Shown here: positions 12,090 through 46,498 of the stretch, one piece after another
Numbering within the stretch: the stretch's first letter is position 1
Layout: each line of letters opens with the position of its first letter
From: Candidatus Udaeobacter sp.
Lineage (GTDB): Bacteria > Patescibacteriota > Patescibacteriia > Magasanikbacterales > GWA2-37-8
Length of the DNA: 64,000 nt
Direction: 5' to 3'
Assembly: GCA_035473115.1 (NCBI GenBank)
Contig: DATION010000006.1
Span: forward strand, 521 to 64,520
Translations under genes and position numbers: made by a program
The notes under the pieces: generated by a model
What the model was told of the DNA's origin: nothing
Database searches by the model: none
The model's input: the letters and a program-made list of their open reading frames with translations, nothing else

Positions 12090-12545
12090 ATGAAAAAAAC
12101 TATTATTTCATCTCTAGCCGCGCTATTTTTTGTGGGATTAGTAATTGTAATTTTACAAAATCGTCGGCCATCCGCGCCTTTGAGTTCGCTTGACTTGACC
12201 AGTCCGCAACCCGGATTAGTTGTTGATACGCCAAAAGTAAATGCTTTGGTATCTTCGCCGCTAATTGTATCTGGGTATGTGGAAGGCAAAAACAGTTGGG
12301 GTGGATTTGAAGGCCAAGCGGGAACAGTCAAGTTGGTTGATAGTAATGGAAAATTTTTGGCAATGGATGTTTTAAAAGCGACAACTGATTGGACAAAACG
12401 GCCGACCAGTTTTACTGCCAGTTTAAATTTTGCTGCGCCGCAAACTACCAATGGCGCGCTAGTTTTTAGAAATGAAAATCCAACTGGCAATCCGGAGTTT
12501 GATCGAGAGTTTCGTTTATTAGTTAAATTTAAATGGGATGAATAA
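12090..12545 (+). CDS. Hypothetical secreted/membrane-anchored protein, possible Ig-like (Gmad2-type) domain
   Basis: N-terminal hydrophobic anchor followed by a beta-rich region (LIVSGYVEG…GTVKLVDSNGKFL). It overlaps the uvrC start by 8 nt. Confidence 0.4.
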   Translation: MKKTIISSLAALFFVGLVIVILQNRRPSAPLSSLDLTSPQPGLVVDTPKVNALVSSPLIVSGYVEGKNSWGGFEGQAGTVKLVDSNGKFLAMDVLKATTDWTKRPTSFTASLNFAAPQTTNGALVFRNENPTGNPEFDREFRLLVKFKWDE

Positions 12546-13704
12546 CTTACAAGAATCTGTAAAAGAATTTCCTTTATCTCCGGGAGTCTATATTTGGCGA
12601 GATAAAAATAATAAGCCGCTCTATGTTGGCCGGGCCACTTCTTTGCGTCGGCGAGTTTTACAATATTTCCGCAAAGATATTGATCCGCGCATCGGCGAGA
12701 TGGTGAGTTTGGCTAGTAAAGTTGAGCACCATCAAACGGCTAGTGTTTTGGAAGCGATTATTTTGGAAGCCAATTTAATAAAAAAATATTGGCCAAAGTA
12801 TAATGTTAAAGATAAAGATAATCGTTCATTTATTTATATTGTTTTTGCCAAAACTGATTTTCCTAAGCCGATCATTGTTCGGGGTAGGGAGTTAGAAAGT
12901 TTCCCTAAATCATCAGCACGGATTTTTGGTCCATACCAAAGTTTAACTTTAGTTCGCAATGCTTTAAAAATTATTCGGCGAATTTTTCCATATAGCACTT
13001 GTTTGCCAACTGGGAAGGCTTGTTTTGAACACCAAGTCGGTTTATGTCCGGGAGTTTGTGTGGGCGCGATAAGCAAACAAGATTATCAGAAAAATATTAA
13101 TAATATAATTTTACTTTTAAAAGGCGAAAAAAATCGGTTGTTAAAAAAACTAACTAAAGAAAACCCGGCAGCTGCTTTGGCTCTAAAACATTTTCAAGAT
13201 GTTACTTTAATTTCTCGGGAAGAATTTGAAGCCGGAGAGCAGAAGTTTAATCGCATTGAAGGTTATGATATTTCGCATTTTGCTGGCAAGGAAGTTTATG
13301 GTTCAATGGTCGTATTTACCAATGGCCAGCCGGACAAAAGCCAGTATCGGTTATTTAAAATAAAAACAGTGACCAATAATGATTTAGATGCTTTAAAAGA
13401 AATGATGGAACGCCGGTTAAAACATACAGAATGGCCAACACCAGATCTGATTTTGATTGATGGCGGCAAGCCGCAGATTGATTATTTAAGCAAAACGATG
13501 GTTGATTTTCAGGTTAAGTTTCCTTTCTTGGGACTCTCAAAGTTAAATGGTGATCATTTGGTATATCCTTCAGGAACAAAAAATGTGTTCAAGGACTTGG
13601 CGCTAACAATTAAAAGAACTCTGCAGGCTGTACGCGATGAAGCGCATCGTTTTGCCAATCGCGGCCGCAGCCGACGCTATAACTTGGATAATTTTGGCAG
13701 ATAA
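12538..13704 (+). CDS. uvrC: Excinuclease ABC subunit C, compact form (GIY-YIG + RNase H-like endonuclease domain; no C-terminal HhH pair)
   Basis: GIY-YIG motif (GVYIWRD…LYVGRA) and the UvrC endonuclease region (EGYDISHFAG…YRLFKIK…LILIDGGKPQ…DEAHRF). 388 aa versus about 600 aa typically. Confidence 0.85.
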   Translation: MNNLQESVKEFPLSPGVYIWRDKNNKPLYVGRATSLRRRVLQYFRKDIDPRIGEMVSLASKVEHHQTASVLEAIILEANLIKKYWPKYNVKDKDNRSFIYIVFAKTDFPKPIIVRGRELESFPKSSARIFGPYQSLTLVRNALKIIRRIFPYSTCLPTGKACFEHQVGLCPGVCVGAISKQDYQKNINNIILLLKGEKNRLLKKLTKENPAAALALKHFQDVTLISREEFEAGEQKFNRIEGYDISHFAGKEVYGSMVVFTNGQPDKSQYRLFKIKTVTNNDLDALKEMMERRLKHTEWPTPDLILIDGGKPQIDYLSKTMVDFQVKFPFLGLSKLNGDHLVYPSGTKNVFKDLALTIKRTLQAVRDEAHRFANRGRSRRYNLDNFGR

Positions 13705-13720
13705 AATGACGGCTGTTAGC

Positions 13721-13749
13721 TTGACTTTTGGAGTGGGGAGTGGTATAAG
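13721..13749 (+). promoter_or_regulatory. Sigma70-type promoter TTGACT-N17-(TGg)TATAAG
   Basis: TTGACT at 13721-13726 and TATAAG at 13744-13749 with 17-nt spacing and an upstream TGg. It is followed by an AGGAGG SD at 13757-13762. Confidence 0.5.
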
Positions 13750-13768
13750 TCAAGCAAGGAGGTTCAGG

Positions 13769-13873
13769 ATGAATAGGAAGGAAAAAATAGCTGTTGCTGT
13801 TTTGGTAATCATCGCAGCACCACTCGCTGTTTTTGTAGCTGGTGTTGCTTTGGCGACCTGTGGTGGTCTTTAA
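13769..13873 (+). CDS. 34-aa hydrophobic small membrane peptide (type I toxin-like architecture)
   Basis: ATG 6 nt after a perfect AGGAGG. The peptide is MNRKEKIAVAVLVIIAAPLAVFVAGVALATCGGL, a basic N-terminus followed by one TM helix. The annotated 78-aa ORF 13637-13873 is its upstream extension. Confidence 0.4.
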   Translation: MNRKEKIAVAVLVIIAAPLAVFVAGVALATCGGL

Positions 13874-13915
13874 TAAGCCACAAGTTGCTTTAGTTAGTTG
13901 TTCTTTTCGTCGTCG

Positions 13916-13957
13916 TCTCTGTTGTCGCTTCGGTGGCTTCAGAGATTTTGTTTTTTT
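13916..13957 (+). terminator. Hairpin + T-run after the small peptide gene
   Basis: tctctg … cagaga stem followed by ttttgttttttt. Confidence 0.45.
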
Positions 13958-13966
13958 ATTTAATCA

Positions 13967-13995
13967 TTGACTTTTTACTCGTAAAATAGTATAAG
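13967..13995 (+). promoter_or_regulatory. Second copy of the TTGACT-N17-TATAAG promoter
   Basis: TTGACT at 13967-13972 and TATAAG at 13990-13995. An AGAGGAG SD at 14024-14030 precedes the ATG at 14041. Confidence 0.5.
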
Positions 13996-14040
13996 TGAGC
14001 TACCAAGGTTTTTGATCAAACAAAGAGGAGTTCTTTGAAT

Positions 14041-14370
14041 ATGGAAGATCTGATTTTCCGGCTTATCTTTTGTCTCTGGAGAGCCAGCAGTAAGACACTA
14101 TCGATAGTTACGCTGGAAGGATGGCGTTTTCGTCGATGGGAAAAAAATCATCCTTCGCTTGAAGCTCTGCAAGCCCGGGAGCGTAGGTTGCAGGAGTTGC
14201 ACAGCCTAAATGAAATAGATATAGAGGCTATAAAGGAGCGTTGGCCTCTAGGTACGCCCCCTACAGTGGAGCTTACCAGTAGGCTTGTCAGGAGAGGAAA
14301 CATCAGCAAAGAGTTATTAAAACTCAGACAAGCCATCGAGAGAAAGAGGTCATGGCAAAGATTAGTTTAG
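14041..14370 (+). CDS. Hypothetical Arg/Glu-rich 109-aa protein
   Basis: ORF with a good SD. It is predicted helical and charged (…EALQARERRLQELHSLNEIDIEAIKERW…) with no recognisable family. Its G+C is higher than the flanks. The listed ORF starts at a TTG at 14035, which is too close to the SD. Confidence 0.45.
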   Translation: MEDLIFRLIFCLWRASSKTLSIVTLEGWRFRRWEKNHPSLEALQARERRLQELHSLNEIDIEAIKERWPLGTPPTVELTSRLVRRGNISKELLKLRQAIERKRSWQRLV

Positions 14371-14460
14371 TCGTTCGTTCATTGTTTTGTCGCCGTCACC
14401 GGAGAGGTCTCTGGGGGCGGTTGTTGTTTTTTTATTTAGATTTTCTAAAAACAATTTTTA

Positions 14461-15432
14461 GTGTACAATATATATTGTATGTTAAATATTTATAATCCCA
14501 ATAATCATGACGGTGATAAAACAGTTCCGATTCTAAAAAACGGAGCGGTAAATCATCCGGCTGGTGTGGATTTTACAAAATACGAAGATCCAAATAAAGA
14601 ATTTACTTCCCAGGAATTAAAATGGGGTTTTTGGTATGTAAAAAATAAAGCTTTTTTAAATAAATTTTTATTAATTATTTTAATTGGTATAAATGCGGTT
14701 TTAGTTTTTTTTAGTTTATGGCGATGGGGGAGTTATTTTTTAGATTGGCAGAACTCTCGGCAGACCGAAGCTAACTTGGCGGCCGGAGTCAATTATACCG
14801 GTCTGCAAGCTCATTTTAGCGCTCAGCCAATTCAGGCGGTAAATACGCAAATTTTCCCTAGCCGATCAAATAAGTATGACGCCGTGGCGGAGCTGATAAA
14901 CCCTAATAGCCGGTTTTTGGCAACGTTCAATTATTATTTTATTATTGATGGTGAAAAAACTCCGCTGCAAAAAACTTTTTTATTGCCCGGAGAAAATAGG
15001 TTGGTTACCTATTTGGGCATAAAAAATGGTACTGGCGGTACGCCAACAATTGTTTTAGAGAATATTGAGTATCAGCGCATTTCAGCTCATGAAGTTCCGG
15101 ATGCTGTTAGTTGGCAAGCTTATAGATTAAATTTTAAAGTTAGCGATTTTGTCTTTCTAAAATCTTTGGCTCAAGAAGGAATTAATACCGATGCTATTCA
15201 ATTTAAGCTTACTAATGCCAGTCCGTATAATTACGCGGCGCCGGATTTTTATGTAGCGCTTATGCAAAATGGACAGATGGTTGGTGTTTTGCCTCTTCAT
15301 CTGGATTCAATAAAATCTTTAGAGACAAAAGATATTGATCTGCGCTATTTTTTTGGCAATTTAAACATAAGCGAAATTGCGCTTTATCCGATTATCAATG
15401 TGTATGATAAAGGAGCCTACTTAGCTCCCTAG
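14461..15432 (+). CDS. Hypothetical single-pass membrane protein with a large extracytoplasmic domain
   Basis: 323-aa ORF with a TM segment FLLIILIGINAVLVFFSLW. It sits immediately upstream of the SEDS-family gene. No family recognised. Confidence 0.45.
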   Translation: MYNIYCMLNIYNPNNHDGDKTVPILKNGAVNHPAGVDFTKYEDPNKEFTSQELKWGFWYVKNKAFLNKFLLIILIGINAVLVFFSLWRWGSYFLDWQNSRQTEANLAAGVNYTGLQAHFSAQPIQAVNTQIFPSRSNKYDAVAELINPNSRFLATFNYYFIIDGEKTPLQKTFLLPGENRLVTYLGIKNGTGGTPTIVLENIEYQRISAHEVPDAVSWQAYRLNFKVSDFVFLKSLAQEGINTDAIQFKLTNASPYNYAAPDFYVALMQNGQMVGVLPLHLDSIKSLETKDIDLRYFFGNLNISEIALYPIINVYDKGAYLAP

Positions 15433-44797: not shown

Positions 44798-46498
44798 ATG
44801 ACAAGTAAAACAAAACAGAACATAATTGAATTGCTGCACAAAGCCGGTGTGCAGGGCGAAGTAGAATTAACCGTTCCACCAAATCCGGAAATGGGGGACT
44901 TTGCTTTTGCTTGTTTTAATATCGCTAAGGAATTTAAAGTTAATCCAAAAGAAGCTGCTGAGCAGCTAAAATTAAAATTGCAAGATAAAAAGTTAAATTC
45001 AGTCGAAAAAATAGAAGTAGCCGGGCCGTATCTAAATTTTTATTTAAAAACATCCACATTAGCCAAGTCAGTTTTGAGTGAAATAAAAAAACAAGGAAAA
45101 AAATATGGTAGTAATAAATCTGGCAAAGGCAAAAAGGTTTTGATTGAATATCCGTCGAACAATACTCATAAAGAATTTCATATTGGTCATTTCCGCAATG
45201 TTTGCATTGGTAATACGTTAGTTCAGCTTTATGAGACTAATGGCTTTAAAGTTTTTCCGGTAAATTATCTTAACGATTTTGGCAATCATGTGGCCAAATG
45301 TTTATGGGGTCTGAATAAATTTCACGCTAATGAAAAGCCGCCAGCCAACAAGCAAAAATGGCTGGGAGATATTTATGCCGAAGCAAGCCAGCAGGTAAGA
45401 GACAATCCTGATTTTGGTAAAGAAGTGGCGCAAGTGCAGAAGAAGCTAGAAGAACATGATGCCGAACTCTGGCCTTTGTTTATGCAAACCAGACAATGGA
45501 GCATAGAAAAATTTACAGAAATATTTAAACAGCTGGCAGTAAAACATGTGGCGGTATTTTACGAAAAAGATTTGAAAGGCAAAGGCCAAAAAATTATTGA
45601 TGAACTTTTACAGAAAGGCATTGCTCAAGTGGGGGAAGGCGGAGCGATTATAATTGATTTGAGTAAATATAATCTAGATGTGGCATTGCTGCGCAAATCA
45701 AACGGCGCTGGTTTATATTTAACCAGTGATTTGCCTCTGGCCATGGCTAAATTTAAAAAATTTAAAGTTAATGAAAGTATTGTCGTAACCGGCATAGAGC
45801 AGAATTTTTATTTTAAACAGTTGTATAAAATTTTAGAAATAATCGGCTTCAAAAATAAACTAACTCACATTGGTTATGGTTTGGTGAATCTAAAAGAAGG
45901 CAAGATGTCTTCCCGATTAGGCAATGTAATTTTATATGAAGATCTATACACCGAAGTTTTTGAAAAATTAAAAACTGAATCAAAAGAGAGGCACACGGAT
46001 TGGAGTGAGAAAAAAATAAATGAAACTGCGCAGGTTTTGGCAATGGCTGCTCTAAAATTTGATATGTTAAAACATGAAGCGGCCAAAAATATTACTTTTG
46101 ATACCAAAGAAGCCACAGCCTTTGAAGGTTTTACCGGACCGTATATTTTGTATGTTATTGCCAGAATCAACAGCATGTTGGCCAAAGCCAAAGGTAAAAT
46201 TAAAAAATCAACCAGCCATGACCTGTTAGATAAACCGGAAGAAAAGCAGCTGTTATTATTTTTAGCTCGCTACGAAGAAGTAGTGTCCGAAGCTTTGCAG
46301 GAGTATAATCCGTCAACCATTACTCGCTACTGTTTTGATCTGGCGCAGAAATTTAATATGTTTTATAACAAACATAATGTGTTAAACGCCGAGAATCAAG
46401 ATTTGATTGGCGCCAGACTGCAGTTATGCGGGGCGGTAAAAAATGTTTTAGAAAATTCTTTGCATCTGCTTACCATTGATACGGTAAAAGAGATGTAG
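44798..46498 (+). CDS. argS: Arginyl-tRNA synthetase
   Basis: N-terminal Arg_tRNA_synt_N-like domain, HIGH region FHIGHFRN and a DALR anticodon-binding C-terminus. Confidence 0.92.
   Translation: MTSKTKQNIIELLHKAGVQGEVELTVPPNPEMGDFAFACFNIAKEFKVNPKEAAEQLKLKLQDKKLNSVEKIEVAGPYLNFYLKTSTLAKSVLSEIKKQGKKYGSNKSGKGKKVLIEYPSNNTHKEFHIGHFRNVCIGNTLVQLYETNGFKVFPVNYLNDFGNHVAKCLWGLNKFHANEKPPANKQKWLGDIYAEASQQVRDNPDFGKEVAQVQKKLEEHDAELWPLFMQTRQWSIEKFTEIFKQLAVKHVAVFYEKDLKGKGQKIIDELLQKGIAQVGEGGAIIIDLSKYNLDVALLRKSNGAGLYLTSDLPLAMAKFKKFKVNESIVVTGIEQNFYFKQLYKILEIIGFKNKLTHIGYGLVNLKEGKMSSRLGNVILYEDLYTEVFEKLKTESKERHTDWSEKKINETAQVLAMAALKFDMLKHEAAKNITFDTKEATAFEGFTGPYILYVIARINSMLAKAKGKIKKSTSHDLLDKPEEKQLLLFLARYEEVVSEALQEYNPSTITRYCFDLAQKFNMFYNKHNVLNAENQDLIGARLQLCGAVKNVLENSLHLLTIDTVKEM

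Follow-up and report, generated by a model that had tools for sequence, protein, structure and literature searches.

Two adjacent small genes with their own promoters and terminators, probably products of an old tandem duplication, in the hypervariable gap that separates uvrC from envelope genes in a Magasanikbacteria-like genome

The stretch of 64,000 nucleotides analysed here (the window; contig DATION010000006.1 of NCBI GenBank assembly GCA_035473115.1, positions 521 to 64,520 of the forward strand) was found to carry two small transcription units in the gap between uvrC and a gene for a 323-aa membrane protein (p323). They are probably two adjacent small genes, each with a promoter and a terminator of its own, which go back to an old tandem duplication and occupy the hypervariable gap that separates uvrC from a conserved cell-envelope cluster (p323 and FtsW/RodA) in a Magasanikbacteria-like genome of the Patescibacteria (Candidate Phyla Radiation, CPR). 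Each unit is predicted to be read from a sigma-70-type promoter through a Shine-Dalgarno (SD) site and a short open reading frame (ORF) to an intrinsic terminator. There is no terminator belonging to uvrC ahead of the first promoter, and the terminator of unit 1 would also halt read-through from uvrA-uvrC, while that of unit 2 would insulate the promoter downstream of it.

Promoter 1 (13721-13749) and promoter 2 (13967-13995), both on the plus strand, have the form TTGACT-N17-TATAAG, with a TGG preceding the -10 hexamer in promoter 1. These two sites, reported with identical hexamers and spacing in an earlier sequence-only reading of the window, are indeed present and are the only matches to this string on either strand of the 64 kb, where 0 were expected from shuffles. 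Their hexamers are near TTGACA and TATAAT and are separated by a distance within the 16-18 nt of sigma-70-type promoters, with 9 of 12 consensus positions matched in each copy; a generic promoter scanner rejected both copies because it requires a T at position 6 of the -10 hexamer. Other promoter-like sites of the window combine TTGACA or TTGATA with TATAAT or TATATT, so both unit promoters deviate alike from the local consensus. The identity between the two promoters slightly exceeds the hexamers, comprising TTGACTTTT (9 nt) and GTATAAGT (8 nt), and the position and sequence of the promoters are kept in relatives. Strings characteristic of the scaffold are TTGACTTTT-N14-GTATAAGT, the AATCTCAACAAGGAG leaders, the GTCTCTGTYRCC...GGCAGAGAC hairpins and GGGGCGGYTRTTGTTTTTTTATTTA.

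The SD site of unit 1 (SD1, AAGGAGG, 13756-13762, plus strand) stands 6 nt 5' of the ATG of ORF1 at 13769 and, judging from the position of the -10 hexamer, would coincide with or adjoin the expected transcription start, with a leader of about 13 nt. An SD site and a short ORF were confirmed for unit 2 as well, the site being corrected to AGAGGAG (SD2, 14024-14030, plus strand), 10 nt 5' of the ATG of ORF2 at 14041; this spacing is rather long, and an alternative TTG start is found at 14035. The SD2 motif AGGAGTTCTTT is also present in the leaders of two relatives, L004 and L095. Both units end with a stable hairpin followed by a U-tract, UUUGUUUUUUUAUUU and UUGUUGUUUUUUUAUUU respectively, as in intrinsic terminators. 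The hairpin of terminator 1 (GTCTCTG..UUCG..CAGAGAU, 13915-13946, -17.4 kcal/mol, z -6.3) precedes a U-tract at 13947-13962, and that of terminator 2 (CGCCGUC.CCGGAG....CUCUGG.GGCGG, 14392-14421, -19.0 kcal/mol, z -3.0) a U-tract at 14422-14438, all on the plus strand; both hairpins were missed by a generic terminator scanner on account of their internal loops. The similar 3' ends pointed out earlier proved to contain an identical 15-mer, TTGTTTTTTTATTTA, at 13948-13962 and 14424-14438. A near-copy of this tail at 45080 (minus strand) sits within a coding region and is irrelevant here. The G+C content of the units (0.44-0.50) is above that of their surroundings (about 0.29-0.40), as had been noticed, and an independent Logan assembly (L081) equals the window over 6,330 nt spanning both units. 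The window sequence was reassembled from the reads of SRR9656165.

Within the window taken alone, the identity between the units consists of the 9-, 8- and 15-nt blocks only, and the best local alignment that leaves out the tail was equalled by 41 of 1000 shuffles. Self-alignment therefore comes near to disclosing the hexamers only, the outcome named beforehand as refuting the sequence-only reading, with a few short blocks added and nothing significant in the rest. The duplicated expression scaffold put forward in the sequence-only reading is borne out instead by comparison with L098, the closest relative (p323 75% identical), which has the same two-unit layout. In the genes flanking the units, the window and L098 share 78-87% nucleotide identity and 51-56% identity at fourfold-degenerate sites, which corresponds to about one substitution per neutral site. 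The two-unit layout predates this split, and the recent duplication that had been suggested is not supported.

Promoter 1 of L098 (TTGACTTTTT...GTGGTATAAGT) is the orthologue of window promoter 1 and is identical to it at 29 of 34 nt. It is followed by a 99-aa basic helical ORF, absent in the window and similar at its N-terminus to the protein of unit 2, and then by an SD site, a 31-aa peptide and terminator 1. The indel between the two genomes (about 375 nt, L098 1926-2300) starts directly after the -10/start region and ends before the small peptide gene. Unit 2 of L098 has a weaker promoter (TTTACTTTTTT...GGTAAAAGT), orthologous to window promoter 2, with the leader AAAGGAGCTCTTTGATATG, and ends with a 107-aa ORF and terminator 2. 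All four terminators, two from each genome, end in TTGTTTTTTTATTTA.

Comparison across the two genomes brought to light the paralogy of the units. Window promoter 2 with its leader (to 14040) aligned with promoter 2 and leader of L098 at z 8.3, with promoter 1 and leader of L098, its paralogue, at z 7.3 over about 70 nt, and with the promoter and leader of the single cassette in L095 and L004 at z 6.6 and 6.0, values to be read against a baseline of about 4.7-5, as these shuffle z scores are inflated by the anchored motifs of all slot promoters. The alignment of window promoter 2 with L098 promoter 1 includes GTATAAGT(G/C)AGCTAC across the transcription start. At the 3' end, the hairpin of window terminator 2 matches both L098 terminators in type, window terminator 2 and L098 terminator 1 agree at 27 of 29 nt, and terminators 1 and 2 of L098 have 25 identical nt in common (E 2e-10). 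The 99-aa and 107-aa proteins of L098 are co-linear with similar N-termini (global z 3.6). This cross-genome paralogy of promoter-leader and terminator regions places the duplication of the scaffold before the split of the window and L098 lineages.

The simplest history of the locus can be proposed from the two genomes and the outgroups. The ancestral state would have been a single cassette composed of a promoter, a AATCTCAACAAGGAG-type leader, a gene for a small membrane protein and a GTCTCTG hairpin terminator. This cassette would have been tandemly duplicated in the common ancestor of the window genome and L098, and unit 1 of the window lineage would later have lost about 375 nt, with both its leader and its 99-aa paralogue, such that promoter 1 would now drive the 34-aa membrane peptide gene directly. 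The terminators would have been partly homogenised, with window terminator 1 keeping the older GTCTCTG hairpin, while L098 terminator 1 looks converted to the type of terminator 2. The near-identical terminator tails are probably due to common descent, constraint and/or gene conversion. As for the swapped cargo of the sequence-only reading, the ORFs of the two units do differ, but the deletion in unit 1 is the best explanation of the difference.

ORF1 (13769-13873, plus strand) encodes a 34-aa peptide, MNRKEKIAVAVLVIIAAPLAVFVAGVALATCGGL, whose N-terminus is basic and which ends in Cys-Gly-Gly-Leu (CGGL). It is hydrophobic, as had been described, with a maximum Kyte-Doolittle value of 2.8 over 19 residues and one transmembrane (TM) helix, and its codon score of 0.25 is gene-like (G+C at third codon positions, GC3, 0.29). 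A homologue, the 31-aa hydrophobic peptide MKVIKKVASVAVTALIVLAVVGAMLLPCTGW, occupies the same position in L098; the global alignment of the two gave z 4.1, reached by none of 2000 shuffles, and identities at the three codon positions are 52/58/29%. Given the gene-like codons, the strong SD site, the clear TM helix and the positional homologue in L098, ORF1 probably encodes a real small membrane peptide, and the product is predicted to be single-pass with its N-terminus inside. The RNA of unit 1 folds far better than shuffles (z -5.0), the terminator contributing part of this stability.

ORF2 (14041-14370, plus strand) would code for a basic protein of 109 aa (pI 10.8) that is predicted to be all-helical, and it is an orphan whose positional counterpart is the 107-aa ORF of L098. 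It is the best of the six frames, and a plus-strand ORF of 111 codons, the length of its TTG-start version, appeared in 15 of 5000 simulations. The AlphaFold single-sequence model is all-helical, in agreement with the helical protein proposed earlier (best pLDDT 74.8, the other four 44-60), and Foldseek gave no match to it with E <1 in the PDB. No homologue was found by a word-index search or by exhaustive phmmer (5.8 billion clustered and 1.84 billion representative proteins, respectively), the latter returning the query itself and two repeat-protein matches regarded as noise. A profile built from ORF2 and its L098 counterpart likewise retrieved no homologue beyond these two and repeat-protein noise, and neither ORF1 nor ORF2 had a significant match in Pfam, PHROGs or PADLOC. 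The L098 counterpart has an N-terminal TM helix where ORF2 has a hydrophobic stretch broken by arginines; codon-position identities between the two ORFs are 35/47/31% and amino acid identity is 24%, which is the random level. ORF2 is probably a translated orphan that is fast-evolving or decaying, and its protein may descend, through decay or a change of use, from one that was anchored in the membrane.

Relatives of the locus were recovered via UvrC, via p323 in metagenomes, and via p323 homologues together with their contigs. All Magasanikbacteria-like relatives in which uvrC is followed by the 323-aa gene and ftsW have such units in this gap. In every relative with the order uvrC-p323, the gap (here termed the slot) measures 0.36-1.2 kb and holds one self-contained unit (L004, L099, L096, L087 and L100) or two (L095, L101, L102, L085 and L098), and the earlier view that the units had been inserted after uvrC was accordingly abandoned. 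The first unit is almost always of one build: its promoter, cTTGACc...TGGTATAAAt, lies right after the uvrC stop, its leader is of the AAAATCTCAACAAGGAG type, and its terminator is the hairpin GTCTCTGTYRCC...GGCAGAGAC followed by T7. Among 98 sequences (761 kb) the GTCTCTG...CAGAGAC hairpin is confined to the slot; it is conserved in at least nine of the relatives examined, and its 12-bp stem varies by one-sided changes only (9 sequences). Window terminator 1 contains the orthologous hairpin.

Across genomes, leader and hairpin enclose ORFs of which only some are homologous. One family (L004, L095, L099, L096, L085 and L086) consists of proteins of 66-131 aa with at least two TM helices and a basic RRYRL-like segment, related at pairwise E values down to 6e-11. 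Other slot ORFs encode a 189-aa Cys-rich lipoprotein (L085), a 142-aa soluble protein (L100) and a 59-aa acidic protein (L087). Searches of Pfam, PHROGs and PADLOC matched none of the relatives' slot proteins to a known family, and tblastn of all of them against the window slot in all frames revealed no hidden frameshifted homologue. The GC3 of slot ORFs (window, L098, L004 and L095) is 0.39-0.61 versus 0.26-0.38 in the flanking core genes, the window 34-aa ORF being the exception. The units are not conserved core genes, as had been anticipated. Between genomes, the ORFs are either non-homologous or at random-level identity. A literature search found no account of such slots in Patescibacteria.

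The 25 C-terminal residues of the 91-aa slot protein of L086 (221-496) are 76% identical to the 25 N-terminal residues of the 142-aa slot protein of L100 (2358-2786), the common module being INWEG.K..LGWKG..EDLKR.KLP. At the level of sequence, this module indicates that ORFs of the slot are remodelled by deletion and read-on. The slot leaders of L099 (2690-2720) and L086 (190-220) have GGGGCTCCTTTRGGAGGAGGAA in common, which could form a hairpin sequestering the SD site. In L087 (935-1090), TTCGAAAT-type repeats form an AT-rich array after the slot terminator and ahead of the p323 start. In L084 (1440-1560), another neighbour, encoded on the opposite strand, precedes p323, and a short CGGACTT tandem repeat is found there, so the linkage of uvrC and p323 is not universal.

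Between the window and L098, the scaffold modules are 75-95% identical (promoter 1 75%, terminator 2 module 81%, p323 promoter 95%), and the terminator 2 module contains a stretch of 25-29 nt at 92-93% identity. These values are above those of the fourfold-degenerate sites, which argues that the regulatory parts are constrained; as judged from this comparison, purifying selection acts on the regulatory scaffold. The ORFs overall would be evolving at or beyond the neutral rate or would have been remodelled by indels, and for ORF2 in particular the alternatives are evolution at or above the neutral rate, remodelling by indels, or replacement. It is conceivable, though we think it rather unlikely, that the gap after uvrC is a standing expression slot, in which a selected and sometimes duplicated scaffold would serve ORFs (two-TM proteins, lipoproteins, soluble proteins and the 34-aa peptide) that are continually replaced or born, and which would thus be a natural hotspot at which small genes turn over or arise de novo in a reduced genome of the symbiont type. 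On this reading, diversifying selection at the cell envelope might act on the products.

Several points weigh against the reading of two genes derived from an old duplication, in addition to the inflated z baseline of the promoter-leader comparisons. L098 is the one close relative behind the inference of a duplication, the databases contain no relative that exceeds 75% identity in the 323-aa protein, and the 9-, 8- and 15-nt blocks shared within the window are low-information strings of promoter- and terminator-like type. Position and a weak co-linear score (4 of 2000 shuffles) are the grounds for treating the 109-aa and 107-aa ORFs as orthologues. The codon score of ORF2, -0.12, is lower than that of any 109-codon window of real genes and only slightly exceeds the off-frame maximum; its GC3 is 0.46, and with no detectable homologue its translation is a prediction. 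If the two units had no common descent and were simply unrelated small genes, each with a near-consensus promoter and a T-rich tail, the restriction of the match within the window to short blocks would be expected, since such signals can converge. This is improbable, as both promoters show the same departures (TTGACT and not TTGACA; TATAAG and not TATAAT or TATATT) and the paralogy across genomes spans about 70 nt of promoter and leader and 25-29 nt of terminator. Equally improbable is an explanation by cassette exchange or by a mobile element, the latter raised in the sequence-only reading, in which units would integrate at the terminator tail with duplication of 15 nt or recombine at the common promoter and terminator. 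A perfect 15-nt direct repeat does flank unit 2, one and the same set of promoter, leader and hairpin surrounds ORFs that are not homologous between genomes, and the GC3 of slot ORFs is raised relative to the flanks. Nevertheless, no integrase, transposase or other recombinase is encoded within about 4 kb, no terminal inverted repeats bracket the units, and a search for further copies of the scaffold found none in the 64-kb window or in the 761 kb of related loci. Phage and plasmid matches were lacking as well (tblastn gave nothing useful), and the direct repeat, with neither terminal inverted repeats nor other copies, does not make the units an insertion sequence or a miniature inverted-repeat transposable element. 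The layout in common with L098 speaks against a recent insertion, and indels within the slot together with module re-use (the 375-nt indel, and the L086 and L100 proteins) explain the change of cargo with no need of import.

Two further explanations concern the nature of the products. Unit 1 might be a system akin to type I toxin-antitoxin (TA) pairs, with a 34-aa membrane toxin whose translation is limited by a structured mRNA. The peptide is typical in size and form (34 aa, one TM helix, basic N-terminus), has a strong promoter of its own, and is encoded on an RNA with a long 3' untranslated region (about 75 nt) that is much better folded than shuffles. We regard this as quite improbable, because the minus strand shows no promoter-like site at 13700-14440, so that no antisense RNA is evident, the SD site is unpaired in the predicted fold, the L098 peptide gene lies downstream of another ORF in its unit, and no family in Pfam, PADLOC or Rfam was matched. 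Very improbable, finally, is the idea that one or both units are structured non-coding RNAs and not protein genes, to which the raised G+C in an AT-rich genome, the strong structure of unit 1 RNA, and the atypical codons of ORF2 and its want of homologues would lend themselves. The RNA of unit 2 is no more stable than shuffles (z -1.2), an ORF as long as the 111-codon one is unlikely by chance, both ORFs have SD sites, and the sequence from promoter to terminator is not conserved with L098, which speaks against a conserved RNA structure. The units matched no Rfam 15 family, even at E <=10: the gathering score is reached in the window by a tRNA alone, outside the units, and the best hits at 13500-14700 have E >=1.7, far below threshold. 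RNase P, 6S, signal recognition particle (SRP) and transfer-messenger (tmRNA) RNAs had been considered for the G+C-rich units and were dropped, since Rfam (at gathering and permissive settings) and ARAGORN gave blank results.

The slot is bounded upstream by uvrC (12538-13704, plus strand), preceded by uvrA and a gene for a Gmad2-domain protein, and downstream by the promoter and leader of p323 (TTTTCTAAAAACAATTTTTAGTGTACAAT..., 14441-14478, plus strand). The p323 gene itself is at 14479-15432 and is followed by genes for FtsW/RodA, a zinc-ribbon protein and ribosomal protein L25. An imperfect 19-nt palindrome within 14453-14490 (79% complementary, no spacer) extends across the -10 region and the start codon of p323 and may be an operator. 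UvrC is short (388 aa), with GIY-YIG, UvrC_M and RNase H-like endonuclease domains but no C-terminal helix-hairpin-helix region, and this short form (386-390 aa) occurs in all close relatives. The closest UvrC sequences (73-80%) belong to Magasanikbacteria and other Patescibacteria metagenome-assembled genomes (MAGs). At NCBI, p323 is VLK22_03510 and is labelled 'Candidatus Udaeobacter sp.' (Verrucomicrobiota). Close relatives of uvrC, p323 and ftsW are all from Patescibacteria or Magasanikbacteria MAGs, and thus the contig was probably put in the wrong bin or given the wrong label.

Patescibacteria, a phylum with almost no genetic tools, have many orphan small membrane proteins that are uncharacterised. 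The two units do not represent a new mobile element or a new system. If the reading of an old duplication is true, they would provide a small and clean natural case in which regulatory DNA has outlasted the genes under its control, useful for the study of small-protein evolution and gene birth in Patescibacteria, and their promoters and terminators are candidate native parts for work in this phylum.

Among known systems, integron cassettes are likewise short tandem modules with differing cargo, each ending in a hairpin-forming sequence, but the units described here have their own promoters, lack an integrase and attI, number two at a fixed locus, and their hairpins with U-tracts are terminators. 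Type I TA systems (Fst, TisB and Hok type) resemble unit 1 in the small hydrophobic single-TM peptide, the stable structured mRNA and the dedicated promoter, and differ in having the antisense RNA promoter, SD sequestration and family membership that it lacks. With hypervariable genomic islets the slot has in common a fixed site, between uvrC and p323-ftsW, a variable content and orphan ORFs of atypical composition, yet it keeps promoter, leader and terminator while the ORF changes, and it has no mobility genes. Tandem duplication with divergence is matched by the head-to-tail arrangement and the paralogous promoter-leader and terminator regions, with the 25-nt tract of L098 consistent with conversion; unusual for such a case are coding parts that have become unrecognisable and one copy that has lost its main ORF and expresses a small downstream one. 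From an ordinary monocistronic unit the two differ in a -10 hexamer ending in G, in the very short leader of unit 1, and in regulatory parts that are conserved while the coding parts are not. They agree with it in the canonical order and spacing of promoter, SD site, ORF and Rho-independent terminator, and in the conservation of the hairpin in relatives. Thus, the units are of an ordinary kind, two small monocistronic genes, whose modest interest lies in a conserved scaffold with a coding content that turns over.

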